A DNA stretch of 64,000 nt, from contig DAOVVV010000008.1 in NCBI GenBank assembly GCA_030637025.1, positions 5,802-69,801 on the forward strand. The letters run 5' to 3'. This document shows positions 430-19,610 of this stretch, piece by piece (the stretch's first letter is position 1; each line of letters begins with the position of its first letter). The stretch comes from Clostridia bacterium (lineage in GTDB: Bacteria > CBDUZB01 > JAGLHV01). Position numbers and translations under genes: made by a program. The notes below the pieces were generated by a model, which had not been told where the DNA came from, searched no databases, and saw only the letters and a program-made list of their open reading frames with translations.

Positions 430-1761
430 ATGGGAAGCAGAAGTAAAGAAGAAATTTTGAAATTAGTAAAAGAAAATGATGTTAAATTTATTAGATTGTG
501 GTTTACCGACATTTTAGGACAGGTTAAAAGTTTTGCCATTACTGATAATGAATTAGAAACTGCCTTAGAAAACGGTATGGGTTTTGATGGTTCTTCCATT
601 ACCGGTTATCAATCCATAGAAGAAAGTGATATGATTGCTTTTCCTGATACAAGTACCTTTGAGCTACTTCCCTGGCGGCCAAAAGAAAAAGCAGTGGCCC
701 GTATGATTTGCGATATTTTAACCCCTGATAGAAAACCCTATGAAGGGGATCCCCGTTATATATTAAAAAAAGCCTTAAAAAGAGCTAACGATATGGGATT
801 TGACCATTTTTACATAGGACCGGAATTAGAATTTTTCTATTTTAAGAATGATCAGGGTGCTGAGGTTTTAGATAAAGGAGGGTATTTTGATTTAACTACC
901 TTAGATGTTGCTTCTGATTTAAGACGGGATACGGTACTGGCTTTAGAATCAATGGGAATACAGATTGAGTATAGTCACCATGAAGTAGGACCCAGTCAGC
1001 ACGAAATAGATATGCGTTATGATGATGCCATAAAAATGGCTGATAATGTAATAACTTATCGTATTATTGTTAAGGAAATTGCTCAAAAATACGGGGTGTA
1101 TGCTACATTTATGCCTAAACCGGTTTTTGGAGAAAATGGCAGTGGTATGCATACTCATCAGTCTCTTTTTAAAGGAGATAAAAATTCCTTTTTTTCCAAA
1201 AAGGATAAAAATTACTTAAGCGATACAGCCAAAAAATTTATTGCCGGACAAATAGTACATGCTAAGGAAATGAGTGCAGTATTTGCCCAATGGGTAAATT
1301 CTTACAAAAGACTTGTTCCGGGATATGAAGCCCCGGTTTATATTGCCTGGTCGCGAAGAAACAGATCAGCTTTAATCAGGGTGCCGGAATATCATCCGGG
1401 AAAGGAACAGGCAACGAGAATGGAATTTAGGTCTCCGGATCCTGCTTGCAATCCTTATCTAACCTTTGCGGTGTTACTGAATGCCGGTTTAGACGGTATT
1501 GAGAAAAATTATGAATTACCTGAATCAATAGAGAAGAATTTGTACAATTTAAGTGCGGAAGAGAGAAAAGATTTAGGAGTGGCGTCTCTGCCGGATAGTT
1601 TGGGAGAAGCAGTTAATCTATTGGAGAAGAGCGATTTTATAAAAAAAGCTCTAGGTGAGCATGTATTTTCTCGTTTTGTAACTTTAAAAAGAAAAGAATG
1701 GGATGATTATCGAATTCAATTGACCAAATATGAATTAGATAAGTTACTTCCCATACTCTAA
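430..1761 (+). CDS. glnA: glutamine synthetase type I (443 aa, GSI-alpha-like)
   Basis: Full-length Gln-synt N and C domains. Starts with the MxxxSKEEILKLVKENDVKFIRLWFTDILG pattern typical of GlnA. AAAAGGAGG RBS. Confidence 0.9.
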   Translation: MGSRSKEEILKLVKENDVKFIRLWFTDILGQVKSFAITDNELETALENGMGFDGSSITGYQSIEESDMIAFPDTSTFELLPWRPKEKAVARMICDILTPDRKPYEGDPRYILKKALKRANDMGFDHFYIGPELEFFYFKNDQGAEVLDKGGYFDLTTLDVASDLRRDTVLALESMGIQIEYSHHEVGPSQHEIDMRYDDAIKMADNVITYRIIVKEIAQKYGVYATFMPKPVFGENGSGMHTHQSLFKGDKNSFFSKKDKNYLSDTAKKFIAGQIVHAKEMSAVFAQWVNSYKRLVPGYEAPVYIAWSRRNRSALIRVPEYHPGKEQATRMEFRSPDPACNPYLTFAVLLNAGLDGIEKNYELPESIEKNLYNLSAEERKDLGVASLPDSLGEAVNLLEKSDFIKKALGEHVFSRFVTLKRKEWDDYRIQLTKYELDKLLPIL

Positions 1762-1773
1762 AATAAGGGAGTA

Positions 1774-1824
1774 TATACACAACCTTGGTTTTCTATTTAA
1801 ATAGGGAACCAAGGTGATGTGTTA
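1774..1824. terminator. imperfect long hairpin after glnA (core ccttggtt / aaccaagg)
   Basis: Inverted repeat 13 nt after the glnA stop. No clear U-tract. Confidence 0.3.
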
Positions 1825-1841
1825 TATTAGATTAAACGGTT

Positions 1842-2549
1842 ATGGTTTTAATTATAAAACATGTTACAGTAGAAGGTCCGGGGTTAATTGGTGATTTTTT
1901 TCAAGCTAGCAAATGGCAGATAAAAACGGTTGAATTGGGGAATGGGGATAAATTACCCGAAGACCTTCAAGGAATCAAAGGGATTATTGTTTTAGGTGGA
2001 CCGATGAATGTGGATGAAGAGAAACAATATCCTTTTTTGAAAGAGGAAAATAAGTTCTTAAAAAAAGCAATGATATTTAATATTCCTCTTTTAGGCATAT
2101 GTTTAGGTTCGCAGCTTCTGGCTAAAGCAACAGGAGCGAAAGTGCGAAAAGGTGTGGCGAAGGAAATCGGATGGTACAAAATTAATTTAACCGAAGAAAG
2201 TAAAAAAGATTTACTTTTTGAAGGTTTAGGAAAAAATTTGGAAGTATTTCAATGGCACGAAGACCAATTTGACTTACCGCAAGGAGCTTTATTATTAGCA
2301 AGATCTAAAATTTGTCCGAATCAGGCATTTAAGATAGGAAAGAATGCTTATGGCTTGCAGTTTCATATAGAAATTACTCCCGGGATGATTGAATCTTGGG
2401 TAAAGAAATATTATGTAGAGAATGGTAAGCAGTCGATTAAAATAACAGATGTGCAAAAGATGCTTATAGATACATATAGAAAAAAAGGACAATTAACGAG
2501 ACAGACAAAAAAAATTCTTTCCAATTTTTCTCAAATAATAGCAGGGTAA
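1842..2549 (+). CDS. class I glutamine amidotransferase-like protein (GATase1 / peptidase C26-like)
   Basis: GICLGSQLL nucleophile-elbow Cys and a QFHIE His motif, ~235 aa. Sits immediately after glnA. Confidence 0.65.
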   Translation: MVLIIKHVTVEGPGLIGDFFQASKWQIKTVELGNGDKLPEDLQGIKGIIVLGGPMNVDEEKQYPFLKEENKFLKKAMIFNIPLLGICLGSQLLAKATGAKVRKGVAKEIGWYKINLTEESKKDLLFEGLGKNLEVFQWHEDQFDLPQGALLLARSKICPNQAFKIGKNAYGLQFHIEITPGMIESWVKKYYVENGKQSIKITDVQKMLIDTYRKKGQLTRQTKKILSNFSQIIAG

Positions 2550-2552
2550 AAG

Positions 2553-2702
2553 TGGCAGTCGCAACCTTTAGGTTGCGTTCTCAGAGGAGATTTTCCGCAG
2601 GCTTTAGCCTGCGACTACCAAAAAGGGAGTTATGACACACTCTGTTCGCAGGAATCCATTTTGTCGACGATATCCTGGATTCCCGCTTTCGCGGGAATAA
2701 CA
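2553..2702. repeat. ~70-bp palindromic element (tggcagtcgc-hairpin-hairpin-gcgactacca) followed by REP-like half sites
   Basis: Copies at 4973-5038, 16375-16525, 35596-35627 and 53376-53403. Contains gcaacctttaggttgc and gcaggctttagcctgc hairpins. Confidence 0.6.
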
Positions 2703-2810
2703 ACAATAGGACTTTGGCAATAAATTCATAGTCTTCCGAATATTAAAAAAGGAATATGCTGAAAAATGAAAGTCAGGATCTATCTTGACACTACTTTAGA
2801 AAAAGACAAT

Positions 2811-2839
2811 TTGACAGGTGTTTTTTTTTGATGTATAAT
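2811..2839 (+). promoter_or_regulatory. consensus sigma-70 promoter TTGACA-N17-TATAAT
   Basis: TTGACA at 2811-2816 and TATAAT at 2834-2839. About 22 nt upstream of the 2861 start codon. Confidence 0.6.
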
Positions 2840-2860
2840 GCTTAAAATTTAGGCAGAATA

Positions 2861-3232
2861 ATGATTAATATTTCCATAATCGATAAAGAAAGAAAAGTAT
2901 CCTTACTAATTATTAAAGCCCTTAATGATGCTGGGTATTGCATAAAAAAAATAGATACTGAACAGGAAAAACAAATAATAGAAATAGAAGAGAAAAAAGT
3001 TTCTTTTGAACGATCAGTTAAAGAGCTGGAGGATTTTTTTATCCGCAGTAAAGAAAAAGAGCTTTATAAATTTATTTTAACTGCAATAGAAAAACCTTTA
3101 ATTGAGGATGTTTTAGAAAAATGTAGCGGAAATAAAGTGCAAGCAGCACAAATTTTAGGTATAAATAGGAATACTTTACATACTAAAATTAAAAAGTTAG
3201 GGATTAAAATAGAAAAATGGAAAAAAGAATGA
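2861..3232 (+). CDS. small regulator with C-terminal Fis-type (NtrC C-terminal-like) HTH
   Basis: C-terminal ...NKVQAAQILGINRNTLHTKIKKLGI resembles the HTH_8/Fis motif. No AAA+ or receiver domain. Its stop overlaps the nadE start. Confidence 0.5.
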   Translation: MINISIIDKERKVSLLIIKALNDAGYCIKKIDTEQEKQIIEIEEKKVSFERSVKELEDFFIRSKEKELYKFILTAIEKPLIEDVLEKCSGNKVQAAQILGINRNTLHTKIKKLGIKIEKWKKE

Positions 3233-4905
3233 GAATAGCTCTGGCCCAGATTAATTCTGTAGTGGGGGATTTAGAGGGAAATGTAAATAAAATTGTTCAT
3301 TTTGTGAAAAAAGCGCAAAAATTCAAAGCGGATATAGTAACATTTCCGGAATTAGCTATATGTGGATATCCCCCTGAAGATTTATTATTAAAAGAACATT
3401 TTGTGAAAGATAATCTAAAAGCATTAAATTCATTAGTAAGGAAAATTAGCAATATTGCAGTAATTGTCGGATTTGTAGATAGGGATAAAAAGGGTTATTT
3501 ATATAATGCAGCAGCTGTAATTAGTAAGGGGAAAATAAAAGGAATTTATCACAAGGTCAAGTTACCTAATTACGGAGTTTTTGATGAGAAAAGATATTTT
3601 CAACCAGGCAAAGAATTTCCTTTGTTTGAATTAAATCAGGTTGTTTTCGGAATTAATATTTGTGAAGATATCTGGGAACTAAAAGGAGTAGCGAAATTAC
3701 AGGCGGATGAAGGAGCACAAGTAATTATAAATATTTCCGCTTCTCCGTATTATGCCGGAAAAGAAAATTTAAAAAAGAAAATATTAACTAAGCAGGCAAA
3801 AGAAACAAGAACTTATCTTTGTTATAATAATTTAGTAGGAGGACAGGACGAACTTGTTTTTGACGGAGGCAGTGTTGTTTTTGATTTTGCGGGGAAAGAA
3901 ATAATAAGGGGTAAACAGTTTGAGGAAGATTTAATTATTGCTGATTTGCCAATAAAAAAAATAACAAATAAAATTAGAGGTAAAAAGTGTATTAAAATAA
4001 GTATCCCGGAAAATATTAAAAAACCTGTTTTACCAGAAAGTAAAGTAAAAAAATCAAAACAAATAAATAAAATTTATTCTGCTTTAGTTTTAGGAACGCA
4101 GGACTATATAAGAAAAAATGGTTTCCAGAAAGTAGTTGTTGGATTAAGTGGGGGAATAGATTCTGCTTTAACTGCGGTAATTGCCAGAGATGCAATAGGT
4201 AAAGAAAATGTTATTGGTATTTCAATGCCTTCCCGTTATTCATTAATGGAGACACAAAAAGATGCCCGTATTTTAGCTAAAAATTTAGGGATTAGATTTA
4301 TTACCATATCAATAGAAGATATTTTTAAAGTTTATTTAAGGGTACTGGAAAAGGAGTTTTTAGGGTTAAAAAATGATGTTACCGAAGAGAACTTACAGGC
4401 CAGAATAAGAGGAAATATCTTAATGGCTTTTTCTAATAAGTTTAATTGGCTGGTACTTACTACCGGAAATAAAAGTGAGACATCTGTTGGGTATTGCACC
4501 TTGTATGGTGATATGGCCGGCGGATTTGCCGTAATAAAAGATGTTCCGAAAATAATGGTTTACCGGTTAGCTGAATTTGTAAATGAAAAAGAAAATGAAA
4601 GTTTAATACCGGAAAGTATTCTGGTTCGGGAGCCATCGGCGGAATTGCGGGAAAATCAAAAAGACCGGGATAGTTTGCCTCCTTATACGATTTTAGATAA
4701 AATCATAAAGGGTTATGTGGAAGAAGACAAAAGTTCCAAAAAAATAACTACTAATAAAATCAGTATTGGTACGGTAAGAAAAATTATCCGGATGGTTGAT
4801 AAAAATGAATATAAACGCAGACAATCTTCTCCGGGGATAAAAATTACTTCCAAAGCATTTGGTAAGGACAGAAGATTTCCTATTACTAATAAATATAAAG
4901 AGTAG
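3229..4905 (+). CDS. nadE: glutamine-dependent NAD+ synthetase (nitrilase-like glutaminase domain + NAD synthase domain)
   Basis: MRIALAQIN start typical of the CN-hydrolase domain. The C-terminal half carries the PP-loop SGGIDS. An alternative in-frame ATG lies at 3217. Confidence 0.85.
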   Translation: MRIALAQINSVVGDLEGNVNKIVHFVKKAQKFKADIVTFPELAICGYPPEDLLLKEHFVKDNLKALNSLVRKISNIAVIVGFVDRDKKGYLYNAAAVISKGKIKGIYHKVKLPNYGVFDEKRYFQPGKEFPLFELNQVVFGINICEDIWELKGVAKLQADEGAQVIINISASPYYAGKENLKKKILTKQAKETRTYLCYNNLVGGQDELVFDGGSVVFDFAGKEIIRGKQFEEDLIIADLPIKKITNKIRGKKCIKISIPENIKKPVLPESKVKKSKQINKIYSALVLGTQDYIRKNGFQKVVVGLSGGIDSALTAVIARDAIGKENVIGISMPSRYSLMETQKDARILAKNLGIRFITISIEDIFKVYLRVLEKEFLGLKNDVTEENLQARIRGNILMAFSNKFNWLVLTTGNKSETSVGYCTLYGDMAGGFAVIKDVPKIMVYRLAEFVNEKENESLIPESILVREPSAELRENQKDRDSLPPYTILDKIIKGYVEEDKSSKKITTNKISIGTVRKIIRMVDKNEYKRRQSSPGIKITSKAFGKDRRFPITNKYKE

Positions 4906-4972
4906 TGAAAGTGTCAAAAAAGGAATGGCAAGAAAAACAGAAAGAAGTTTGTAGATAAAGAGAAAATCGGGG

Positions 4973-5038
4973 GGTAGCCGCAGGCTTTAGCCTGCGTTAT
5001 CGTTGGAGATTTTACGCAGGCTAAAGCCTGCGACTACA
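4973..5038. repeat. palindromic element copy (ggtagccgcaggctttagcctgcg...cgcaggctaaagcctgcgactaca)
   Basis: Same architecture as 2553-2620. Two internal 16-bp hairpins flanked by inverted ends. Confidence 0.6.
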
Positions 5039-5109
5039 AAAACAGAAATCAGAACAGAAATATGCAGATATTTTTGACAATACTAAAGGAATATTGAAAG
5101 AGATAAAAA

Positions 5110-8100
5110 ATGAAAAATACATTTTTTCCTAAAAAACAAGGATTATATGATCCACAATTTGAAAAGGATTCCTGTGGTGTAGGATTTGTGTGTGATATAA
5201 AAGGCAGGCAATCTAACGAAATGTTGCATTTGGGGATACAATCTCTTAATCGCCTCCTACATCGTGGTGCTACCGGCGCAGATCCTGAAACCGGAGATGG
5301 TGCGGGTATTCTTATTCAAATCCCCGATGAATTTTTCCAAAAAGAAACTCAAAAAATAGGAATTGATTTACCCCCATTAGGTGAATACGGTACAGGTTTA
5401 ATATTTTTACCTCCGGATAAAAAAGAGCGGCAGTTTTGTAAAGATATTTTTACAAAAATAATCAAACAGGAGCAGCAAAAACTTTTAGGATGGCGCAGGG
5501 TTCCGGTGGATGATTCCAGTATCGGTAAAACTGCCCGCCAGACTCAACCGGTGATTGAACAAATTTTTATTGCTAAAGACCCGAAGGTCAAAAAACAGAT
5601 ATATTTTGAAAGGCGCCTTTATGTAATTAGAAAACAGATAGAAAATATTATTCGTGCTTCTAATTTAAAACAAAAATCATATTTTTATGTTAATAATATT
5701 TCCTCTCGTACTTTTGCTTATAAAGGGCTATTAATTTCTAATCAATTGGAAAACTTTTTTCTGGATCTTAAAGATAAAAGCTTAAAAACCGCTCTTTGTT
5801 TAGTACATGCGCGCTATAGCACCAATACTTTTCCTACATGGGATTTGGCTCAGCCATTTAGGTTCTTAGCTCATAACGGAGAGATTAATACCTTACAGGG
5901 TAATATTAATTGGATGCGGGCCAGAGAAGGTTTACTACAAAGTGAAGTGTTTAGCGATCAAGATATTGAAAAAATAAAATCCATAATTGTTCCGGGTGGA
6001 AGTGATTCTGCAACTATTGATAATGTATTTGAATTACTTGCTTTAACCGATAAGTCCCTTCCACATGCGATGATGATGCTTATTCCCGGTGCCTGGCAGG
6101 AAAATAAATTAATGGATAAAAAATTAAAAGATTTTTATAAGTATCATGCCTGCTTTATGGAACCGTGGGATGGACCGGCTGCTATTGCTTTTACGGATGG
6201 GGTTAAAATCGGTGCTGTATTAGACAGGAATGGTTTGCGCCCGGCACGTTATATTGTAACTAAGAAAAATTTTGTGGTTATGGCGTCAGAAGTAGGGGTT
6301 TTAGATATAGCTCCGGAAGATATTCTTTTATCAGGAAGGTTAGAGCCGGGTAAAATATTTTTTATCGATACGGAAAAGGGGGAAATTGTCGAGGATAATG
6401 AAATAAAATTGGAAATGGCAGAAAGGCATCCCTATGGTCATTGGATGAAAGAACAGATGGTTGATCTTGATAAAATGCCGGCAGTTAAAAATACCCAAAA
6501 AATTATGCAGGATAGAGTAACATTTTTAAAAGCCTTTGGTTATACCCGCGAAGACTTAAAGTTTATTATCAAATTTATGGCTGAAAACGGAGAGGAACCT
6601 ACAGGTTCAATGGGGGATGATACCCCTCCTGCAATTTTATCTAAAGAACCGGAGCTTCTTTATAATTATTTTAAACAACTTTTTGCCCAGGTAACTAATC
6701 CGGCCATTGATCCTATAAGAGAAAACTTAGTAATGAGCCTGGAAAGTTATATCGGTTCTGAAAAGAATATTTTAGCAGAGACATCTTTACATTGTCATAA
6801 ATTAAGAGTAAAGAAACCTGTTTTGAGTAACGAAGATTTAGAAAAAATACGCAACATAAAAAAGAATGATCTTAAAACAAAGACTATTTCCGTTTTGTTT
6901 TCCACTAAGAACAAAGATAATAAGGAATTTATAAAAGCCCTGGATAAAATATGTGCAGAGGCAGTTATGGCAATCAAAGAAGGGTATACTTTTATTATTT
7001 TAAGTGACCGGGGTGTTAATAAAGAATATGCGGCAATACCGATTCTTTTAGCTCTGGGGGCCGTACATCATTTTTTAGTAAAAAAGGCTTTGCGTTCTCA
7101 AATTGGAATTATAATAGAAAGTGCGGAACCACGCGAAGTTCATCACTTTGCTCTTCTTTTTGGATACGGTGCTGATTGTATTAATTCTTATTTGGCCTAT
7201 GATGCAATTAAATATTTAATAGATGAGAACCGGATAGAATTAGATTATGATATTGCTTTGAGTAATTATAGAAAAGCTGTTGATAAAGGAATATTTAAAA
7301 TCCTTTCGAAGATGGGGATATCAACCTTACAAAGTTACAAAGGTGCTCAGATATTTGAAGCCCTGGGTTTAAAGGAAGAGATAATTAACAGGTGTTTTTT
7401 AGGAACGGTTTCCCGTATTGGCGGAGCAGGGTTTGATGTTATTATTAAAGAAACTCTTTTGCGCCACGAAAAAGCCTATTCCCAAAAAGAAACAACAACT
7501 TCTTCTTATCTGGATGCCGGTGGTGTGTACCAATGGAAAAGAAACGAAAAGTTTCATTTATGGAATCCCCAGACTATTTCTGCTTTACAGAATGCAGTCA
7601 GACAAAATAGTTATTCCGGGTATAAAGAATTTGCCCGTACGATAAATGACCAATCAGAAAATCCTGCTACTCTACGCAGTTTATTTAAATTTAAAAAAAC
7701 CGGAGCGATACCAATAAACAAAGTAGAACCGGCAGAAAAAATCCTAAAACGTTTTGTTACCGGGGCAATGAGCTTTGGTTCTATTTCCAAAGGAGCGCAC
7801 GAAAGTATTGCTATTGCGATGAATCGATTAGGTGCCCGTTCCAATACAGGGGAAGGGGGTGAAGATCCTGCACGGTTTAAGCCGTCGACTAATGGTAATT
7901 TTAAGCGTAGTGCAATAAAACAGGTTGCTTCAGGAAGATTTGGAGTAACTACGAATTATTTGGTAAATGCTGATGAGTTACAAATAAAAATAGCACAAGG
8001 GGCAAAACCCGGGGAAGGGGGGCAGCTTCCCGGGCATAAAGTAAGCCCGGCTATTGCCCAAATTCGTTATACTACCCCGGGAGTAATTTTAATTTCTCCT

Positions 8101-9651: not shown

Positions 9652-11083
9652 AGGTTTTTTAAAAATTAAAAAACAAAATAGTCAATACAGGCCAGTCAAA
9701 GAACGAATTGAAGATTTTTGTGAAGTAACAATTTTACCTGATGTTTCCCATTCTCAGGAACAGGCAGCACGTTGTATGGATTGTAGCACTTCCTTTTGTC
9801 ATTGGGGATGTCCGTTGGGAAATTATATTCCGGAATGGAATGACTATGTTTTTAACGGTCATTGGAAAAAGGCATTTGAATTGCTTACGGCTACTAATAA
9901 TTTACCTGAAATTACCGGGAGACTATGTCCTGCTCTTTGTGAATATGCATGTGTTTTGGGATTTAATGACGATGCGGTAACTATAAGAGAGAATGAATTA
10001 GCTGTAGTTGAATATGCTTTTAACACAGGATTAATAAAACCTTCGCTTCCTTTAATGCGAACAGAAAAAAGGGTTGCTGTTGTTGGCTCAGGCCCGGCAG
10101 GATTATCCTGTGCTGTCCAATTAAATCAAGCCGGCCATAAAGTAGTTGTTTTTGAAAAAAACAATAAAATCGGAGGAATTTTACGTTACGGTATTCCTGA
10201 TTTTAAACTGGAAAAAGAAATAATAGACCGGCGACTGGCAATTTATGAAAAAGAGGGAATTGAATTTATCACCGGGGTAAATGTAGGGAATGACTTATCC
10301 GCAGAAAAACTTTTAGCAGAATATGATGCAATATGCCTTGCCGGCGGAAGTTCTGTTCCCCGTGATTTAAAAATCGAAGGCAGGAAAATGGAAGGTATTC
10401 ATTTTGCTATGGATTATTTAGTGCAAGCCAATAAGAAGGTTTCCGGAGAAAAAATTGTTGACGAAAAATTAATTAATGCTAAGGGGAAAAAGGTAGTAGT
10501 TATCGGAGGTGGTGATACCGGTGCTGATTGTGTCGGAACAGCTCATCGGCAGGGTGCAAGGAAGATAGTACAAATTGAGCTTTTACCTAAACCTCCCGAA
10601 TCGCGTAGTCAGGATTTTCCGTGGCCGGTATATCCGGTAATTTTAAAAACTTCTACTTCACATCAGGAAGGTGGAAAACGCTGCTGGTCGGTTTTAACTA
10701 AAAAATTTATAGGAGAAAAAGGGGAAGTAAAAAAAATTATCTGTGTAAAAGTAGAGTTTATTAAAAAAGATGAACATTCTTCTCCGATAATGAAAGAGAT
10801 TCCAGGCAGTGAATTTGAAATAGAAGCGGACTTGATAATTTTAGCAATAGGTTTTATTGGTCCTCAGCAACAGGGATTATTAAAAAAACTCAGCATTGAA
10901 CCGGATAATCGGGGGAATGTAAAAAGCGATGAAAAACAAATGACCTCAAGAAAAGGAATATTTGCTGCCGGTGATATAAGGAGGGGACAATCACTTATTG
11001 TCTGGGCTATATTAGAGGGTAGACGGACCGCTTATTTTATTGATGAGTATCTTATGGGTAAAAGTTGTTTGCCATTTATTTAG
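9638..11083 (+). CDS. gltD: glutamate synthase small subunit, NADPH-dependent
   Basis: Overlaps the gltB end by 14 nt. Two Cys clusters at the N-terminus and two Rossmann GxGxxG motifs (VAVVGSGPAG, VVVIGGGDTG). Confidence 0.9.
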   Translation: MGDPKGFLKIKKQNSQYRPVKERIEDFCEVTILPDVSHSQEQAARCMDCSTSFCHWGCPLGNYIPEWNDYVFNGHWKKAFELLTATNNLPEITGRLCPALCEYACVLGFNDDAVTIRENELAVVEYAFNTGLIKPSLPLMRTEKRVAVVGSGPAGLSCAVQLNQAGHKVVVFEKNNKIGGILRYGIPDFKLEKEIIDRRLAIYEKEGIEFITGVNVGNDLSAEKLLAEYDAICLAGGSSVPRDLKIEGRKMEGIHFAMDYLVQANKKVSGEKIVDEKLINAKGKKVVVIGGGDTGADCVGTAHRQGARKIVQIELLPKPPESRSQDFPWPVYPVILKTSTSHQEGGKRCWSVLTKKFIGEKGEVKKIICVKVEFIKKDEHSSPIMKEIPGSEFEIEADLIILAIGFIGPQQQGLLKKLSIEPDNRGNVKSDEKQMTSRKGIFAAGDIRRGQSLIVWAILEGRRTAYFIDEYLMGKSCLPFI

Positions 11084-11102
11084 TTGTGCTTAAATTGGAT
11101 AT

Positions 11103-11132
11103 TTGACATAAAGATGGAAAATGAAGTATAAT
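11103..11132 (+). promoter_or_regulatory. sigma-70 promoter TTGACA-N18-TATAAT
   Basis: TTGACA at 11103-11108 and TATAAT at 11127-11132. Follows the gltD stop and points into the GIY-YIG unit. Confidence 0.5.
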
Positions 11133-11206
11133 ACAGCGCTGAAAGATAGAAGACACCTAAATCTCTATGGTTACATAGTGCAATTATGGGAAAAAATGGA
11201 TAATTT

Positions 11207-11230
11207 GTCATTCCTGCGAAAGCAGGAATC
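11207..11230. repeat. 24-bp REP-like perfect palindrome gtcattcctgcgaaagcaggaatc (left flank of GIY-YIG ORF)
   Basis: Same palindrome at 317-340, 11542-11565, 16868-16891 and 54038-54061, with variants elsewhere. Confidence 0.7.
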
Positions 11231-11248
11231 TAAAAAAAAAGAATAAAC

Positions 11249-11536
11249 ATGAGAGATTATTATATTTATATATTAGCCAGTAAAAAGAATGGGACATTGT
11301 ATCTTGGAGTTACGAATAATCTTGTAAAAAGAGTATATGAACACAAACAAAACTTTGTAGAAGGATTTACTAAGAAATATAACATTCATAGTTTGGTATA
11401 TTATGAACAGACCAATGATAGCTACAGTGCTATTCAACGCGAAAAAAGGATGAAAAGATGGAAGAGGGAGTGGAAGATAGAATTAATTGAAAGATTTAAT
11501 CCTGGATGGAAAGATTTACATTATGATTTGATATAA
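11249..11536 (+). CDS. small GIY-YIG nuclease family protein (95 aa)
   Basis: YIYILAS...GTLYLGVTNNLVKRVYEH is a GIY-YIG core (YhbQ/UPF0213-like). Flanked within 18 nt and 5 nt by inverted copies of the REP-like palindrome. Confidence 0.7.
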   Translation: MRDYYIYILASKKNGTLYLGVTNNLVKRVYEHKQNFVEGFTKKYNIHSLVYYEQTNDSYSAIQREKRMKRWKREWKIELIERFNPGWKDLHYDLI

Positions 11537-11541
11537 TTATG

Positions 11542-11685
11542 GATTCCTGCTTTCGCAGGAATGACAGAATGGAAAAAGGAATGACAGAATAAGAACAGGA
11601 ATGACCCTCCTTATTCTCCGCCTCAGGCGGATGAGGCGGAACGGAGAGGCACGTAGAATAAGAATAGAATCAGTGCGGAATGATT
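11542..11685. repeat. cluster of repeat modules (REP-like palindrome, ggaatgac repeats, ccgcctcaggcgg palindrome, cagtgcggaatga)
   Basis: Right flank of the GIY-YIG ORF. Its modules are shared with the other repeat loci. Confidence 0.6.
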
Positions 11686-11725
11686 TGCATTTTTGACATT
11701 ACTAATATTTAGAGAAAGGATTGTA

Positions 11726-12802
11726 ATGAAAGCAATAATTGCTCTGGAAGATGGAACTATATTTGAAGGTAGTTCCTTTGGTGCATCCGGTGAAAGGACA
11801 GGAGAAATAGTTTTTAATACCAGTATGATGGGATACCAGGAAATTTTAACCGATCCTTCCTATAAAGGACAAATAGTTGCTATGACTTATCCTTTAATCG
11901 GAAATTACGGAGTAAATAAAGAGGATTATGAATCAATAAGGCCTTTTATGGAGGGATTTGTAGTTAAAGAATGCAGTCAGGTTACCAGTAATTGGCGGGC
12001 ACAAGACAGTTTAATTAATTTCCTTAAAAAGCACAATGTTATGGGAATAGAAGGGATTGATACCCGCGCACTGACTAAACATATACGTGATAAAGGAGCA
12101 ATGAAAGCAGTCATATCTACCGAATGCCTGGATAAGAGTTTTTTAGTGGAAAAAGCAAAAAAATCCCTCTCTTTAATTGGGAGGGATTTAGTAAAAGAAG
12201 TTGCTGCCCAAAAACCTTATGAATGGGAGAAAAAAGGGAAATATAAAGTAGTAGTTATTGATTGTGGAGTGAAATATAATATATTACGGGAATTGGCATT
12301 ACATGACTGTGCGGTAAAAGTTGTTCCGGCTAAAACAAAAGCTGCTGATATATTAAAATTAAAGCCGGATGGATTATTGATTTCTAATGGTCCGGGTGAT
12401 CCGCAGGGGGTTCCCTATGTAATAGAGACAGCAAGGCACTTACTGGATAAATTACCTATTTTTGGAATTTGCCTGGGACACCAAATCTTAAGTTTAGCTA
12501 TGGGTGGAAAAACTTATAAACTTAAATTCGGCCATCGGGGGGGAAATCATCCGGTGAAGGATTTAAAAACTAACAAAATAATTATAACCGTCCAAAATCA
12601 TGGTTTTTGTGTAGATATAGAATCATTGAACAAGGAAGTGGAAATGACCCATATAAATCTTAATGACCGGACTTTAGCCGGAATACGACATAAAAAACTT
12701 CCTGTATTTTCTGTTCAGTTTCATCCGGAAGCTTCTCCCGGTCCGCAGGATGCGCAGTATTTATTTAAGGAATTTATTGATTTAATTTCTTTTTCGGTCT
12801 AA
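11726..12802 (+). CDS. carA: carbamoyl-phosphate synthase small (glutaminase) subunit
   Basis: [11 protein letters not shown] start, a GICLGHQ catalytic Cys and an HPE motif. The ORF-track start at 11693 is probably too far upstream. Confidence 0.9.
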
Positions 12803-12886
12803 TTCCCCGCGGCTTGTGGTAGTGTCAAAAATTAGATGAAAGAATGTGAAAGGCTTACGATAAGTAATTAGAAAATAGGAGTATTT

Positions 12887-12965
12887 GTCATTTCCGTGTA
12901 AACGGGAATCCTTGAGTAAATATTAGCAAAAGAATAGATTCCTTCTTTCGCAGGAATGACAGAAT
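12887..12965. repeat. two REP-like palindromes (variant gtcatttccgtgtaaacgggaatc and gattccttctttcgcaggaatgac)
   Basis: Lies between carA and carB. Palindrome family as above. Confidence 0.55.
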
Positions 12966-13122
12966 AAAAAAAGAAAAAGCACTTATTTTAACATAAATGA
13001 AAAATCATAAACTAAATGTCAAAAATATTTGACATTACTTAGCTTGCGGTAGGAAGCTACGAATAAATAAAATAGTTGGGAATGGAATACAAATATAAAC
13101 CTTTACATTAAGGACGATAAAA

Positions 13123-16100
13123 ATGCCTAAAAGAACAGATATAAAAAAGATATTAATTATTGGGTCGGGACCGATTATAATTGGTCAGGCCTGTGAGTTT
13201 GATTATTCCGGAACACAGGCATGCAAAGCATTAAAAGCGGAAGGATACGAAGTTGTTTTAGTCAACAGTAATCCGGCAACGATTATGACCGACCCTGAAA
13301 TGGCTGATCATACTTATGTTGAAGCAATAGTTCCTGAAATGATAGAAAAAATTATTGCCCAAGAAAAACCGGATGCCGTACTGCCTACATTGGGGGGACA
13401 AACAGCACTTAATGTGGCAATAAAATTAGAAGAAAAAGGTGTTTTTAAAAAATATAACGTAGAAATGATTGGAGCAAATTGTGAGGTAATTAAAAAGGCG
13501 GAAGACAGAAAATTATTTAAAAAAGCAATGGAAAAAATTGGTATGGATTTACCGAAAAGCGGACCGGCGTATAGTTTAAACGAAGCTGAAGAAGTAGCGG
13601 TAAAGATAGGTTTTCCGGTGATTATTCGTCCCAGTTTTACCATGGGGGGAACCGGTGGAGGGGTGGCATATAATATTGAAGAATTCAAAGAAATGGCAAT
13701 TAAAGCTTTAGATAGTAGTTTAATTAATGAGATATTGATAGAAGAGTCAGTAATTGGTTGGAAAGAATTTGAATTAGAAGTAATGAGGGATAGAAAAGAT
13801 AATGTAATTATTGTTTGTTCTATAGAAAATTTAGACCCTATGGGAGTTCATACCGGGGACAGTATTACTGTTGCCCCTATCCAAACTCTCACCGATAAAG
13901 AATATCAACAGATGCGTAATGCGGCGATAAAAATAATCAGGGAAATCGGGGTGGAGACAGGGGGGTCTAATGTACAGTTTGCGGTTAATCCGGAAGACGG
14001 AAAAATGGTAGTGATTGAAATGAACCCGCGTGTATCACGTAGTTCCGCTCTAGCTTCTAAAGCAACCGGTTTTCCCATAGCTAAAATAGCAGCTAAATTA
14101 GCCGTAGGATATACTCTGGATGAAATACCTAACGACATTACCCAAAAAACGCCTGCTTGTTTTGAACCGACTATCGATTACTGTGTAGTTAAAATTCCCC
14201 GTTTCAATTTTGAAAAATTTCCTTCCGCGAGTAAAATATTAACTACTTCTATGAAAGCAGTAGGCGAGGTTATGGCTATCGGAAGGACATTTAAAGAAGC
14301 ATTGCAAAAGGCTTTGCGTTCTATGGAAACAGGAAGTTATGGATTAGATAAAAAGTTCAACTCTTTAACCAGGGAAAAAATATCGGAGAAATTGGGAATT
14401 CCTTCCACGGATAGAATTTTTTATATAAAAAGTGCGTTGGATGAAGGTTTTAGTATAGAAGAAATTTACGATTTGTCGAAAATAGATAAATGGTTTTTAT
14501 ATAATATTAAACAAATTGCCGATTTGGAAGAAGAAATTATTAATTATTCCAATCAGGATAAGTTCCCTCTTGATTTATTAATAAAAGCAAAAAAATATGG
14601 TTTTTCCGATAGACAATTAGCCTTTCTTTTAAAAAAAGATGAAAGTTATATCCGCAACTTACGCAAAGAAAAAAATATTTTTCCTACATTCAGACAGGTG
14701 GATACCTGTGGGGCGGAATTTGAAGCGTATACACCATATTATTATTCTACTTACAATGCAAAAGCTGAGGATAAAGTTTCGGTTTCCTTAAATAAAAAAG
14801 TGATGATTTTAGGTGGTGGTCCGAATAGAATCGGGCAGGGTATAGAATTTGATTACACCTGTGTGCATGCGGCTTTTGCTCTGGGTGATGAAAAATATGA
14901 GTCAATTATGGTCAATTGTAACCCTGAAACAGTATCCACTGATTATGACACTTCCGATAGACTTTATTTTGAGCCGCTGACCGTTGAAGATGTTCTGGCA
15001 ATTTATGAGAAAGAAAAGCCGGAAGGGGTGATTGTTCAGTTTGGCGGGCAGACTCCCTTGAATATTGCTAAGGAATTAGAAAATAACGGAGTGAAAATTT
15101 TGGGCACATCACCGGAGAGCATTCATTTAGCCGAAGATAGAGAACATTTTTGTAAAAAAATGATTGTTCTTGGTGTTCCCCAACCGGAAAGCGGCATAGC
15201 CCGTTCATTGGAAGAAGCTGTTACTATTGCCGGAAAAATAGACTATCCCCTAATGGTAAGGCCTTCTTTTGTATTAGGCGGTCGAGGTATGGAGATTATT
15301 TATGATGAAACTATGCTGCTAAAGTATGCCCGGGAAGCGATTAAGGTTAGCCCGGAATATCCGATGCTTATTGACCGATTTCTTGAACAGGCCATTGAAA
15401 TAGAAGTTGATGCTCTTTCCGATGGAGAGAATACATTTGTTGCTGCCATTATGGAGCACATAGAGTTGGCCGGTGTTCATTCAGGAGATTCTGCCTGTGC
15501 TATTCCCACCAGAACGATTAAAGAAAAGTGTTTAAGGACAATAGAAAAATATACAGTTCAAATTGCAAAAGAATTGAAGGTTGTGGGTTTAATGAATATC
15601 CAATATGCTATCTGTGATGATAAGGTCTATATTCTTGAAGCAAATCCCAGAGCTTCGCGTACAGTTCCTTTTGTTTCCAAAGTTACGGGAATTCCTATAG
15701 CCCGTATAGCAACTCAGGTCATGTTAGGTAAAAAAATTAAAGATTTACCTGGGTTAAAAAAACATAAACTTCCTTATGTAGGAGTAAAAGAAGCGGTTTT
15801 TTCTTTTAATATGTTCCCCGAGGTGGATCCGCTGTTAGGGCCGGAAATGAGGGCTACCGGGGAGGTGATGGGAATTGCTGAAACCTTTGGACTTGCTTTC
15901 TATAAAGCACAAGAAGCTGCAGGCACTAAACTTCCCCTGGAAGGAAATGTTCTTTTAACCGTAGCCGATAAAGATAAAAAGGGTTTGGTTTCCATTGCCC
16001 GACAGCTTAAGAAAATGGGGTTTAATATTTATGCTACAGGAGGTACCAGCTGTTTCTTAAAAGAAAAAGGTATAGAGAATATAACGGTAAAGAAATTACA

Positions 16101-16344
16101 TGAAGGCAAACCCAATATCACCGATGCGATTAAAAACAAAAAAATCAATCTTATAATAAATACACCTATTGGCCGCAGCAGCAAATACGATGATAGTTTT
16201 ATTCGTATAAAAGCGATACAATATAAAATTCCTTATATTACTTCATTAATGGCTGCTCAAGCTAGTGTTGAAGGTGTTCAAGCTGTAACTAAAGCCAAAA
16301 ATTCACCTAAGTCCCTGCAAAATTATTACACGAAACTTATTTAA
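13123..16344 (+). CDS. carB: carbamoyl-phosphate synthase large subunit (1073 aa)
   Basis: Duplicated ATP-grasp halves, oligomerisation domain and MGS-like C-terminal domain. Confidence 0.95.
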
Positions 16345-16374
16345 AAAAAATCATAACTTACTCATATTTATATG

Positions 16375-16525
16375 TGGTAGCCGCAACCTTTAGGTTGCGT
16401 TATCGCCGGAGATTTTCCGCAGGCTACTTGTTCGCTCCGCCTCAGGCGGATTTGGAGGAAAGCCTGTGACTACCAAAAAGGGAGTTATGACACAGTCTGT
16501 TTGCAAGAATGACGCAGCAAGCTGC
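16375..16525. repeat. palindromic element copy carrying a nested insertion of the ccgcctcaggcgg module (16427-16460) inside its second hairpin, plus a 3' REP-like tail
   Basis: The consensus aggctaaagcct hairpin is split as aggcta[34-nt insert]agcct. The ends tggtagccgc / gtgactacca are retained. Confidence 0.6.
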
Positions 16526-16649
16526 AGATAATTAGACCCAAAGAGAAATTATTAAATTTCATTAAGTATAATTTAGCAGGCTTACAGTCTGCCATTATGT
16601 TTGGTGGAAAGATGAAAATATTGCAAGAGAAATTTGGGTGATTAAAAGC

Positions 16650-16678
16650 TTGACAATGTTACATTTAATATTTATACT
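16650..16678 (+). promoter_or_regulatory. sigma-70 promoter TTGACA-N17-TATACT
   Basis: TTGACA at 16650-16655 and TATACT at 16673-16678. About 280 nt upstream of the 16956 gene. Confidence 0.45.
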
Positions 16679-16744
16679 AAGACATATTTTGAAGAATAAA
16701 ATGGCACAATGATGTGCATTATAAGGACAAAGGGGTCCGATATT

Positions 16745-16767
16745 AAAGGGGCACCTTTTATTTTTTT
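16745..16767 (+). terminator. short hairpin (aaagg-ggca-ccttt) plus U-tract, a possible attenuator in the leader
   Basis: 5-bp stem, 4-nt loop, then tattttttt. Preceded by a 22-codon mini-ORF (ATGATGTGC...). Confidence 0.25.
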
Positions 16768-16783
16768 AAAGGTGTGAAGTTAA

Positions 16784-16924
16784 AGAGTTCTGCAAAATAC
16801 AATATTCTGTCATTTCGCTCTGCCTGAGGCAGATGATGCGGAATCTATAATGTTTTTAAATATCAATAGATTCCTGTTTTCGCAGGAATGACAAAAAAGA
16901 TAAAAAGCTATTTTGCAGAAGTCT
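16784..16924 (+). mobile_element. MITE-like composite repeat copy (TIRs agagttctgc / gcagaagtct)
   Basis: Same modules as 254-396. Its 3' end lies 31 nt before the 16956 ATG. Confidence 0.6.
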
Positions 16925-16955
16925 ATGTGAAGTTATTAAAAGGAGGAAAGGAAAA

Positions 16956-18545
16956 ATGAATTTACAACAACCAAATGCAAATGAAGCAATACAGACCTCA
17001 AACCGGTCAAGAAATGTTTCTCCGGTATCGGGACTTTGTACCCGTTGTATTGACGGATGTCGTGGTAACTGCGATGTTTTTAAAGCAACATTTAGAGGAC
17101 GGGAAGTAATTTATCCGGGACCTTTCGGAGATATTACTGCAGGAGGAGATAAAGAGTATCCTATAGATTATTCACATCTTAATATTTTAGGATATGCAAT
17201 GGGTGCGAAGGGACTTCCCGAAGGAGTCGAAGCCGGACCGGATACGGCAACTTTTCCGGCTGTAAAAACTGAAACCGAATATGGTTGGGACAAGAAAGTA
17301 AAACTGAAAGTACCTATTTTTACCGGGGCATTAGGTTCTACGGAAATTGCCCGCAAAAATTGGGAACATTTTGCCATTGGGGCCGCAATTTCCGGGGTAA
17401 CCCTGGTTTGCGGAGAAAATGTCTGTGGAATTGATCCAAAACTCGAGTTAGATGCTAAAGGTAAAGTTAAAAATGCTCCTGATATGGATCGTAGAATCGA
17501 AACTTACAGAAGATTTCACGGCGGCTATGGTGAAATATTAGTTCAAATGAATGTAGAAGATACCCGTCTGGGTGTTGCCGAATATGTGTTAAATAAACAT
17601 AAATTGGAGACGATTGAGCTGAAATGGGGACAAGGGGCAAAATGTATCGGTGGAGAAATTAAAGTAAAAAGTATTGAAAGGGCATTGGAACTCAAAAAAC
17701 GCGGGTATATTGTTACGCCGGATCCAACAGTTCATTCAGTGAAAGAAGCATATAAAGTTGGAGAAATTAAGGAATTTGAACGGCATTCCCGTCTTGGATT
17801 TGTTTCCGAAGAAGGTTTTTTGGCTGAGGTAGAACGTTTAAGAAAAATTGGTTTTAAACGTGTTACTTTAAAAACAGGTGCTTATCCAATGAGAGAACTG
17901 GCCATGGCGATTAAATACTGTTCAATTGCTAATATTGACCTCTTAACCATTGATGGTGCTCCGGGTGGAACAGGAATGAGCCCCTGGAGAATGATGCAGG
18001 AATGGGGTATTCCCACATTCTATTTACAGTCGATGACCCAGGAGATTTGTGAGAAGTTAACTAAAAAAGGAATGCGTGTTCCTGATATTGCTATCGCCGG
18101 TGGTTTTTCTACTGAAGATCATGTATTTAAGGTGCTTGCTATGGGTGCGCCTTATACAAAAGCTGTTTGTATGGGTAGAGCACTAATGATTCCCGGAATG
18201 GTAGGTAAAAATATTGGCCAATGGATGAAAGAAAACAACTTACCCAAAACAGTTTCTCAATATGGAAAGACAGCAGAAGAAATCTTTGTTTGTTATGAAG
18301 AGCTGGTTGATGAATATGGGAAAGACATGAAAGATATTCCATTAGGTGCTATTGGTATTTATTGCTTTTCACAGAAAATAAAAGTAGGGCTACAGCAATT
18401 AATGGCTGGTACCCGAAATTTTAAACTTTCAACTATTACCAGAAAAGATGTTACCGCTCTTACTCAGGAAGCAGCTAAAGTATCGGGAATACCTTATGTG
18501 ATGGACGCTTATCGTCAGGAAGCAGAGGCTATTCTGGAAGGTTAA
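16956..18545 (+). CDS. glutamate synthase FMN-binding domain-2-like protein (archaeal-type standalone GltB subunit) with N-terminal 4Fe-4S Cys cluster
   Basis: N-terminal Cys-rich CTRCIDGCRGNC motif, GltS FMN-domain signature and a glycine-rich FMN/phosphate loop. Confidence 0.7.
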   Translation: MNLQQPNANEAIQTSNRSRNVSPVSGLCTRCIDGCRGNCDVFKATFRGREVIYPGPFGDITAGGDKEYPIDYSHLNILGYAMGAKGLPEGVEAGPDTATFPAVKTETEYGWDKKVKLKVPIFTGALGSTEIARKNWEHFAIGAAISGVTLVCGENVCGIDPKLELDAKGKVKNAPDMDRRIETYRRFHGGYGEILVQMNVEDTRLGVAEYVLNKHKLETIELKWGQGAKCIGGEIKVKSIERALELKKRGYIVTPDPTVHSVKEAYKVGEIKEFERHSRLGFVSEEGFLAEVERLRKIGFKRVTLKTGAYPMRELAMAIKYCSIANIDLLTIDGAPGGTGMSPWRMMQEWGIPTFYLQSMTQEICEKLTKKGMRVPDIAIAGGFSTEDHVFKVLAMGAPYTKAVCMGRALMIPGMVGKNIGQWMKENNLPKTVSQYGKTAEEIFVCYEELVDEYGKDMKDIPLGAIGIYCFSQKIKVGLQQLMAGTRNFKLSTITRKDVTALTQEAAKVSGIPYVMDAYRQEAEAILEG

Positions 18546-18746: not shown

Positions 18747-19460
18747 ATGAATTTGTTATTGTTTTTAGTTACTCTTATTGTATCTTTTATTGTGATAAAA
18801 ATAGGTGCTATTGCTTTTCAATTGACCGGGTTAGAATGGTCTTTAGCTCAATTTCAAGCTTTATCCTGCTTTACCGGAACCGGTTTTACTACCAAGGAAT
18901 CAGAACTAATTACCGGTAATCTTCAAAGAAGACGCATTGCTTCTGTTCTTATTATTTTGGGTTATGCCGGATTAGTTACCATAATTGTCACTTTTGCTAA
19001 TTCTTTAAGGCCGTCTCCTACCTTTGATGTTCCTTTTTTATCCTCATTTTTTTCGCCGGGGGTGTTACCATGGATAAATTTCGTTATCATCATTATCTCT
19101 GTATATATTATTTATAAAATCGCTACTTACGCTAAATTTACTAAACGATTAACCGATATTTTAAGAGCGCGTATGGTAAAAAAAGAAATTATTAAAGCGG
19201 TATCCTTTGAAGAATTAATGGTTGCTACAGGTGGTTACGGAGTATCCAGCATAGAAATTTGTAAGGGCAGTCCTATATTAAATAAAACTATGATTGAAGC
19301 GGCCTTAAGAAAACAGGATATTACAATTTTGGCCATAGAGAGAGCAGGGGAAATAATTCCTAATCCTTCTGCAAAAATTAAATTTCTTTTAGGTGATAAA
19401 CTGGTGTGTTTCGGAAAGTTAGAAAATATTAGAACTAAGCTGTGTTTAATCCCTGAATAA
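18747..19460 (+). CDS. 2-TM pore-loop cation-channel-like protein with C-terminal TrkA-C (RCK_C) domain and an atypical TGTGF filter
   Basis: TM1, then a pore-helix-like WSLAQFQALSCFTGTGFTT, then TM2, then a RCK_C-like domain (GSPILNKTMIEAALRKQDITILAIERAG). Confidence 0.45.
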   Translation: MNLLLFLVTLIVSFIVIKIGAIAFQLTGLEWSLAQFQALSCFTGTGFTTKESELITGNLQRRRIASVLIILGYAGLVTIIVTFANSLRPSPTFDVPFLSSFFSPGVLPWINFVIIIISVYIIYKIATYAKFTKRLTDILRARMVKKEIIKAVSFEELMVATGGYGVSSIEICKGSPILNKTMIEAALRKQDITILAIERAGEIIPNPSAKIKFLLGDKLVCFGKLENIRTKLCLIPE

Positions 19461-19511
19461 ATTTCAAAAAACAATTAACCTCCCCACAAAAAGCTATGGG
19501 GTATCAATCAA

Positions 19512-19590: not shown

Positions 19591-19610
19591 AGCCACAAAA
19601 AGAAATTAAA

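Follow-up and report, generated by a model that had tools for sequence, protein, structure and literature searches.

Bacterial nitrogen control is well understood in few phyla, through the systems built on NtrC, GlnR/TnrA, NtcA, NrpR and the actinobacterial GlnR. NtrC-type activators combine a receiver, an AAA+ domain for sigma54 activation and an HTH_8 DNA-binding domain, and at E. coli glnAp1 and glnL NtrC acts as a repressor over sigma70 promoters. Fis, a protein of about 98 amino acids (aa) encoded in a dusB-fis operon, consists of an N-terminal beta-hairpin arm and four helices. Dimers of the Fis and NtrC types read dyads of 15-17 bp, the sites of NtrC having TGC-N11-GCA geometry, and Morett and Bork are said to have proposed in 1998 that the NtrC DNA-binding domain gave rise to Fis inside a nifR3(dusB)-ntrBC operon. 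ANTAR proteins also serve nitrogen control, as NasT, AmiR, Geobacter GnfR and Clostridium NitR. The enterobacterial glnALG/NtrBC-sigma54 regulon has been reviewed (PMC3870243). The subject of the present analysis is a 64,000-nucleotide (nt) stretch of contig DAOVVV010000008.1, here called the window, in which genes that make and spend glutamine form a row around a small gene for a Fis-like helix-turn-helix (HTH) protein, placed between the genes for glutamine synthetase (GS) and glutamate synthase (GOGAT).

The reading favoured here, to which a probability of roughly 60% is given, is that the row belongs to a selected nitrogen-assimilation neighbourhood, a chain of several transcription units with shared signals in which the Fis-like protein reads a 17-bp palindrome; it is built on the identified genes and their conserved synteny, on where the motif occurs and on the structures of the leaders. 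The neighbourhood resembles the enterobacterial NtrBC regulon in its putative sigma54-type glnA promoter, its 17-bp dyads of TGC-N11-GCA geometry, its amtB-PII neighbours, its sites overlapping sigma70 promoters and, presumably, the HTH_8 domain of its reader. It differs in that the conserved regulator has 61-129 aa without receiver or AAA+ domain and is encoded between GS and GOGAT, coupled to gltB or nadE, and in that GOGAT and further amidotransferases lie physically inside the cluster. The Bacillus glnRA/TnrA system likewise has a small, sensor-less DNA-binding protein encoded beside GS, a 17-bp palindrome, and GS and GOGAT-type targets, a likeness which suggests that the HTH protein may also be controlled by contact with GS. 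The fold, however, is Fis/HTH_8 here and MerR there, and the regulator gene of the present cluster lies downstream of GS and upstream of GOGAT.

The core of GS, Fis-like protein and GOGAT

About 300 relatives of the HTH protein are detectable, and neighbourhoods were taken for nine of them and supplemented with 80 metagenome loci, around 15 of which were C-termini of NtrC-like activators and were set aside. All loci (L numbers) were annotated with a tblastn panel, large contigs being analysed as 20-kb pieces; L013 is the window's own contig. Among 59 loci evaluable upstream of the HTH gene, GS lies directly upstream in 41 and beyond a class-I glutamine amidotransferase (GATase) in 11, and in two more the contig ends inside the GATase gene (GS upstream in 52-54 of 59). 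Downstream, GOGAT follows directly in 49 of 53 evaluable loci and via nadE in two (51/53), the gene after HTH in the remaining two encoding a homologue of GS529, the 529-aa protein with which the window's row ends. The HTH stop codon abuts or overlaps the start of the following gene across loci. The order is unaffected by the type of GS (GSI of 443 aa, GSI of about 500 aa or GSIII of 730 aa) and of GOGAT (gltBD, or a five-gene archaeal-type enzyme in L005, L015, L016 and L051), and it is also found with HTH forms of 61-90 aa that have no N-terminal domain and in candidate division WOR-1/Margulisiibacteriota (L071, L083). Nothing but the GS-HTH-GOGAT core is fixed, and nadE and carAB are found at varying positions (nadE is absent between HTH and gltB in L001, L002 and L006); the core consists of GS, an optional class-I GATase, the Fis-like HTH_8 gene, an optional nadE and GOGAT, usually with amtB-PII upstream. 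A junction of a carB fragment with HTH in L001 was rejected as an assembly artefact, the fragment being 100% identical to that contig's own carB.

The named relatives of both the HTH protein and GS529 are Candidatus Omnitrophota, the group in which the source organism probably falls. Two metagenome-assembled genomes (MAGs) encode proteins with 92-98% amino-acid identity to those of the window, and a gltB search of genome contigs returned only two near-identical MAGs and one Pelagibacter match. Since the core order recurs in dozens of diverged loci, chance juxtaposition, which a first-pass annotation of the sequence had named as the outcome that would undo its proposal of a glutamine supercluster, is rejected, and the region is a selected nitrogen-control neighbourhood with a core conserved in uncultured Omnitrophota and Margulisiibacteriota. 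Its most diagnostic element is the small Fis-HTH gene, which that annotation had under-weighted.

The 123-aa HTH protein (2861-3232; this and the other features of the row are on the plus strand) has HTH_8 as its sole Pfam domain, and its best match among solved structures is to residues 30-97 of E. coli Fis (1e-9). Its AlphaFold model (pLDDT 80) has a beta-alpha-beta-beta unit (residues 2-44) followed by four helices, and in this predicted fold the helices can be superposed on Fis and on the DNA-binding domain of NtrC4. The recognition helix, INRNTLxxKIKKLGI, is nearly invariant; for the N-terminal unit, ACT-like matches are weak (E > 0.1) and a lead only. The protein is thus predicted to be, like Fis, a stand-alone four-helix DNA-binding dimer of the Fis/NtrC type. 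Unlike Fis, it has a beta-alpha-beta-beta N-terminus, or none, instead of the beta-hairpin arm; its gene is found in GS/GOGAT context and never with dus, staying among nitrogen genes; and its palindrome is specific where Fis sites are degenerate. Nor is it an NtrC-type enhancer-binding protein, neither a receiver nor an AAA+ domain having been found in its 123 aa. It is probably a new nitrogen regulator, and as such a candidate present-day counterpart of the step by which Fis is proposed to have arisen from an NtrC DNA-binding domain. A second HTH paralogue is encoded between ANTAR and GS529 genes in five loci (L018, L021, L022, L095 and L096).

In the window, the nine genes listed by the first-pass annotation were recovered with identical open reading frame (ORF) coordinates, and Pfam and NCBIfam profile scans of the window's ORFs uphold their identities. 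The row starts with glnA for a type I GS (430-1761; TIGR00653, 550 bits against a cutoff of 429), followed by a stand-alone class-I GATase of 235 aa (1842-2549) with an intact triad (Cys87, His175-x-Glu177), whose nearest solved structure is the uncharacterised TM1158 and whose placement between GS and HTH is repeated in about 13 other loci. The HTH gene is joined by nadE (3229-4905, alternative ATG at 3217), the ATG of which overlaps the HTH stop codon (ATGA); its product is a glutamine-dependent NAD+ synthetase in which NAD_synthase is fused to a glutaminase domain of the CN_hydrolase type (NF010588, 740 bits against 479). The large and small GOGAT subunits, gltB (5110-9651; all four domains, namely GATase_2, central, flavin mononucleotide (FMN) and GXGXG) and gltD (9638-11083; Fer4_20 and Pyr_redox_2), overlap by 14 nt and form a bacterial NADPH-GOGAT (NF008730, 1817 bits against a cutoff of 1047; TIGR01317, 632 against 448). 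The glutaminase and large subunits of carbamoyl-phosphate synthase, carA (11726-12802, alternative start at 11693) and carB (13123-16344), both score above their equivalog cutoffs and are separated by a 320-nt spacer with repeats resembling repetitive extragenic palindromes (REP-like). GS529 (16956-18545), matched weakly by Pfam Glu_synthase (68 bits), closes the row and is the only one of its enzymes that is not ordinary. The parent contig (91,666 nt) has four further genes ahead of glnA, in the order PII, porin-like, amtB and a second PII, so that the cluster starts about 4.5 kb upstream of the window, and the row is the downstream two-thirds of a nitrogen-assimilation supercluster of about 23 kb.

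The palindrome, the promoters and the candidate reader

At the start of the HTH gene lies a 17-bp palindrome, TGCYTAA-N3-TTAGGCA, whose outer TGC and GCA are invariant (geometry TGC-N11-GCA). In unbiased k-mer counting, TTAGGCA is found in 37 of 66 dereplicated HTH-upstream regions, compared with no more than 14 after shuffling, and TGCTTAA is found in 21; a match to the palindrome precedes HTH in 64 of 73 loci, in 51 distinct sequences. Scanning the 842 kb of loci with a position weight matrix (PWM) gave 172 strand-hits, compared with 3 in shuffled sequence. About 22 intergenic sites lie outside the training set, upstream of GS (12), of GS529 (2; L010, L056), of GAF-ANTAR-HTH-GS529 units (4; L018, L022, L095, L096), and singly upstream of gdhA for glutamate dehydrogenase (L062), upstream of pyrG (L019) and in the HTH-gltB gap (L067), with a further one in another organism (L090) upstream of a dus(nifR3)-ntrB-ntrC operon. 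Within the window alone the number of palindromes is not significant (6 matches against 3.7 expected), and the significance therefore comes from the comparative set only.

Throughout the 842 kb, the palindrome is restricted to nitrogen genes, which argues against the idea that the HTH protein is simply the lineage's general nucleoid-associated Fis and that genome streamlining and inherited order, with no nitrogen regulon, produced the neighbourhood. This idea can draw on Fis being the closest solved relative of the protein and on the whole window being co-directional and arranged in functional blocks (pho/pst, oxidative stress); the co-direction that the first-pass annotation stressed for the row is real but not special, as it is window-wide, the sole minus-strand gene with Pfam support lying at 47026-48219. 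Yet the place of HTH between GS and GOGAT survives replacement of both enzyme types in at least two phyla, the HTH paralogue recurs between ANTAR and GS529 in five loci, and the accessory amidotransferases vary by lineage, which argues for repeated recruitment; a general Fis is accordingly a highly improbable explanation.

Two palindromes of the window are placed at promoters. The first, TGCTTAAAATTTAGGCA (2839-2855), is a candidate operator 5 nt before the HTH start codon, overlapping the final base of the -10 box as well as the expected start of transcription of the HTH-nadE promoter, a sigma70 promoter TTGACA-17-TATAAT (2811-2839) that matches the consensus at 12/12 positions and is conserved in L001 and L006. 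The second, TGCCTAAAATGCAGGCA (116-132; PWM score of 17.6 bits on the minus strand), lies upstream of glnA and stops 3 nt short of the -24 box of a sigma54-like promoter, TGGCAACCAAATTGCG (136-151; GG-N10-GC, 9/11 match to TGGCAC-N5-TTGCW). This promoter is kept upstream of GS in L005, L006, L071 and L083, and a comparable one lies upstream of PII on the window's own contig (L013 3756). A further copy of the palindrome lies just before the first base of the window (L013 7135). In the GS leaders of seven relatives (L010, L025, L035, L047, L056, L059 and L072) there is also a strongly conserved block resembling a promoter, GGTTACC-N16-TTTTTACTTGTATATAT, situated about 100-250 nt upstream of GS and 5-8 nt before the palindrome, which fits neither sigma70 spacing nor sigma54.

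From the dyad length of Fis/NtrC-type sites and the TGC-N11-GCA geometry we infer that the HTH protein binds the palindrome and autoregulates. In the proposed scheme, a chain of co-directional units would be governed by three signals, the sigma54-type glnA promoter, the palindrome and ANTAR-type conditional terminators. A dimer of the Fis-like protein bound over the -10 box and transcription start of its own sigma70 promoter would exert negative autoregulation on HTH-nadE, which may extend to gltBD by read-through or coupling, and binding beside the sigma54 -24 box would modulate transcription of glnA. Nitrogen status could reach the protein via its small N-terminal ACT-like domain and, in the 61-90-aa forms without this domain, via a partner such as GS or PII.

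An NtrC-type sigma54 activator might instead be the reader, the palindrome serving at sigma54 promoters as an upstream activating sequence and over sigma70 promoters as a site of repression; the small HTH protein would then be a truncated paralogue of the NtrC DNA-binding domain that competes as an anti-activator, or have another role. An NtrC-type protein could bind the palindrome judging from L005, where an NtrB/NtrC-like pair has an HTH (AAQILGINRNTLRNKIEKYGI) near-identical to that of the small protein, with the same recognition helix, and from the site in L090, which resembles NtrC autoregulation. The TGC-N11-GCA geometry is that of NtrC sites, and in L005 and L006/L013 a palindrome is placed some 100-140 nt ahead of the sigma54-like glnA promoter, a distance classical for activators. 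Most palindromes, however, are found not at that distance but 4-60 nt from a start codon or abutting a promoter; NtrC-like genes occur in only 3 of 28 long loci, while the small HTH gene occurs in 28 of 28, each time with a palindrome at its own start; and the WOR-1 loci with short HTH forms (L071, L083) retain the same layout. Control by NtrC is for these reasons considered unlikely.

The L005 helix and the L090 site are also among the observations that weigh against the Fis-like protein as reader, together with several of another kind. Because similarity to the HTH protein was the criterion for retrieving loci, synteny is sampled conditional on its presence, and the source organism is uncultured. 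The half-sites differ systematically (TGCTTAA or TGATTAA on the left, TGCCTAA on the right), and a search for covariation found none, the variation of the recognition helix not tracking that of the operator. Matches to the sigma54-like promoter are overall only about twice as frequent as in shuffled sequence (94 against 51). No palindrome lies upstream of gltB, carA, carB or GS529 in the window, and only part of the row can therefore be in a palindrome regulon.

A further alternative is that the palindrome acts as RNA, a 5'-terminal hairpin or one sequestering the ribosome-binding site on the HTH, GS and GS529 mRNAs, and is no protein operator. On the sense strand the commonest variant, TGCTTAA..TTAGGCA, would form a U-G wobble, many loci have a Shine-Dalgarno (SD)-like AGG in the right half at 4-10 nt from the start codon, and in GS leaders the palindrome would lie at about +1 of the transcript. 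The hairpin, however, is no more stable than shuffles (z from -0.95 to +0.65) and is outside the minimum-energy fold in L012 and L024; uncompensated A-G mismatches affect pair 3-15 in 13 of 51 unique instances and pair 4-14 in 6-7; and several loci have the palindrome 40-160 nt away from the start codon, with a separate SD present. A role as RNA is hence judged very unlikely, and the Fis-like protein remains the preferred reader.

The row is a series of co-directional transcription units and not a single operon. It has three consensus or near-consensus internal sigma70 promoters, namely that of HTH-nadE, a consensus TTGACA-18-TATAAT after gltD and upstream of carA (11103-11132) and a TTGACA-17-TATACT for GS529 (16650-16678; TTGACA-17-TATAAT at the same place in L001), and these, the sigma54-like promoter, a terminator at about 16728-16770 and intergenic gaps of 200-610 nt speak against co-transcription from one promoter without internal terminators. 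Interruption of the row by repeat elements only, as first proposed, holds in so far as hairpins resembling REP elements and miniature inverted-repeat transposable elements (MITEs) are present; it passed over the promoters, the leader elements and a lineage-specific insertion between gltD and carA (11197-11707), downstream of the 11103-11132 promoter, that carries a 95-aa GIY-YIG ORF (11249-11536). L001 and L004 lack this insertion, which does not belong to the metabolic row. Its ORF is bracketed by inverted REP-like copies (11206-11235 and 11537-11566; hairpin ATTCCTGCGAAAGCAGGAAT), and together they may form a small mobile unit in which a GIY-YIG nuclease is linked to REP-like repeats. In the glnA leader there is a composite MITE-like insertion (242-400; termini AGAGTTCTGCGAAATAAC ... 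GTTATTTTGCAGAAGTCT, repeat families D4/D7), a region that differs in the relative L006. The same composite element, with inverted termini and nested REP hairpins, recurs at 16773-16928, 26583-26739 and 53927-54095, with partial copies near 35486 and 40944, and each full copy stops 26-30 nt before a strong-SD start codon, those of glnA, GS529, a BaxI-like gene and desulfoferrodoxin. The coordinated nitrogen-status regulon that had been suggested for the whole row is supported in part, by nitrogen-type signals on glnA, HTH-nadE and GS529; at carAB, none of the recurring nitrogen-linked motifs scanned for was found.

GS529 and its ANTAR-type leader

The target of ANTAR proteins consists of paired hexaloop hairpins with A at position 1 and G at position 4 of the loop, as described for EutV (PMC8934654). 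Between the promoter at 16650-16678 and GS529 lies the only dual-hexaloop match of the window (16704-16770), made up of P1, GCAC[AATGAT]GTGC (16704-16717), and P2, GGAC[AAAGGG]GTCC (16725-16738), both with A1 and G4. P2 is embedded in the 5' arm of the terminator (about 16728-16770), the second hairpin and the terminator being mutually exclusive; in the minimum-energy fold of the leader (-18.8 kcal/mol, z = -3.2), ACAAAGGGGUCC pairs with GGGCACCUUUU, followed by the run of U (T-run at about 16770). The element is conserved in L001, L010 and L056. Across the loci the dual-hexaloop pattern was found 30 times, and never in shuffles, with 14 instances upstream of GS, 13 between GS and HTH-GOGAT and two upstream of amtB. 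The leaders thus resemble the dual-hexaloop targets of EutV (PMC8934654) in the embedding of P2 in a terminator, relatives having likewise such elements at GS, HTH-GOGAT and amtB; they differ from known ANTAR systems in being combined with the palindrome and in that a conditional terminator between GS and GOGAT is among the targets. GAF-ANTAR genes occur in 7 of 28 long loci and stand directly upstream of GS529 or HTH-GS529 in L015, L016, L018, L021, L022, L095 and L096; neither a GAF-ANTAR nor an NtrC-like gene was found in the window. A conserved ORF of 63-79 aa with the motif EWELDHNSQELR and no Pfam match (L005 8328-8519, L096 4176-4415, L095 1967-2206) recurs within the nitrogen clusters of relatives, between a leader and glnA or GAF-ANTAR.

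GS529 itself is an FMN TIM-barrel protein remotely related to the FMN domain of GOGAT: hhalign places it with that domain at 92% probability and 24% identity, and in the profile alignment it retains the motifs K-x-G-Q-G-A-K and D-G-x-x-G-G-T-G. More than 8000 homologues exist, and among the 120 best-scoring, most of the named ones being Omnitrophota, identity is at least 79%. It has an invariant C28-x2-C31-x3-C35-x3-C39 motif near its N-terminus. No NCBIfam model and no Fer4 Pfam domain matches it, and the C-x5-C-x4-C 3Fe-4S motif is missing, the profile alignment stopping before it and a single Cys being found there.

The first-pass annotation had counted two glutamate synthases, GltBD and GS529 as an archaeal-type FMN subunit. 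The former stands; the latter fails on similarity, Fe-S motifs and partner genes. In BLASTP, the similarity of GS529 to GOGAT FMN domains is only local (33% over 75 aa), compared with 38% over 333 aa between gltB and a genuine archaeal-type subunit from L005, and its neighbours in the window are carB and a TrkA_C protein gene, with no genes for GATase_2, Fer4, Pyr_redox_2 or GXGXG subunits adjacent. It also co-occurs with a complete archaeal-type GOGAT in L005, L015 and L016 and with a partly captured one in L096. With the archaeal-type (split) enzyme of these loci, of which Methanocaldococcus MJ1351 is presumably an example, GS529 shares the stand-alone FMN TIM barrel and membership in the Glu_synthase superfamily; it differs in having no ferredoxin domain, 3Fe-4S motif or adjacent GATase_2/GXGXG partners and in its own Cys4 motif.

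Searches of solved structures by sequence and by profile returned no match to GS529, and its AlphaFold model is poor (pLDDT 50), so that Foldseek yields only generic FMN TIM barrels and no functional conclusion. A glutamate-synthase-like reduction without an amidotransferase domain is the best guess, held with low confidence, and the protein may use a GltD-type electron-input subunit. In relatives GS529 often lies beside carAB. A second GltD-like gene is found directly upstream of GS529 in L056 (1-3111), and in L010 (14921-19048) gltBD is followed by a 177-aa ORF that lacks any Pfam match and then by GS529.

A bolder version of the preferred reading would make the 61-129-aa protein, akin to Fis and the NtrC DNA-binding domain, the master regulator of nitrogen in Omnitrophota and Margulisiibacteriota, and perhaps in Elusimicrobiota as well, reading the palindrome at GS, GOGAT, glutamate dehydrogenase, GS529 and pyrG and forming, together with the ANTAR terminators, a conditional 'glutamine super-operon'. 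GS529 would in that case be an unrecognised glutamate-synthase-like enzyme without an amidotransferase domain, dependent on ammonia or on a GltD-like partner. This version is put forward tentatively and regarded as somewhat doubtful.

The wider window and the recruitment of amidotransferases

Downstream of GS529 (18747-21640) come genes for the TrkA_C protein, a putative zinc metallopeptidase (Peptidase_Mx) and an ATP-grasp protein resembling D-Ala-D-Ala ligase; the first two also follow GS529 in L001, a locus that ends within the peptidase gene. A 142-bp tandem repeat, 98% identical and with a third partial copy (21761-22100; rich in GGCACAAAGGCA and GTTATAAGTTA), occupies the spacer that precedes a DUF2007 gene. 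The remainder of the window contains trehalose, pho/pst and oxidative-stress blocks. At 28909-33451 an unusual pair encodes a fusion of a HAD hydrolase with trehalose-phosphatase (565 aa) and a GH65 phosphorylase with a C-terminal response-regulator receiver (956 aa). A co-directional block of phoB/phoR, a porin gene, pstSCAB and phoU (38039-46522) and an oxidative-stress block of rubrerythrin, desulfoferrodoxin and thioredoxin-reductase-like genes (53419-58922) suggest that functional blocking is a general habit of this genome. Glutamine amidotransferases are confined to the row in so far as tblastn found no further copy of GATase1, nadE, GOGAT, asnB, pyrG, carA or hisH in the other ~46 kb, and no GATase-type domain was detected in the ORFs of at least 100 aa scanned outside it, which were most of those there. 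Scans of the window with Rfam, at the gathering threshold, and for tRNAs found nothing.

The set of amidotransferases around the core changes between lineages. Among the 28 long loci, nadE and pyrG each occur in 9, GATase1 in 5, carA in 4, asnB in 3 and hisH in 1, with amtB in 14 and PII in 16, and different lineages have appended nadE, pyrG, asnB, carAB, hisHF, guaA and purQL. Two rows rival that of the window: L056 has the order GltD-like, GS529, nadE, amtB, PII, GS, GATase, HTH, gltB, gltD, pyrG, carA, carB, and L096 the order GOGAT, GAF-ANTAR, HTH, GS529, carA, carB, guaA, purS, purQ, purL. Nine amidotransferase families in combinations that vary by lineage argue for repeated recruitment and not for one inherited order. 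The neighbourhood is in this respect similar to the uber-operons, or supra-operonic functional neighbourhoods, reportedly introduced by Lathe, Snel and Bork in 2000, which keep a set of functionally linked genes together but vary in membership and exact order. Unlike these, it has as its theme a single metabolite, the glutamine amide, spent in the NAD, pyrimidine, purine, histidine, asparagine and arginine pathways, and its units have cis-elements in common.

A literature search returned no description of the cluster, the regulator or the motif, its coverage being incomplete and hence no proof of novelty; as far as it shows, no earlier description exists of the candidate regulator and its site, of the conditional terminators or of the repeated gathering of amidotransferases. 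The recruitment of up to nine amidotransferase families beside GS-GOGAT suggests that selection couples glutamine supply and demand at the level of the chromosome neighbourhood. GS529 is flagged by its predicted signals as a nitrogen-regulated enzyme, and the HTH protein, its 17-bp site and the predicted regulon together provide a testable candidate for nitrogen control in widespread uncultured phyla.

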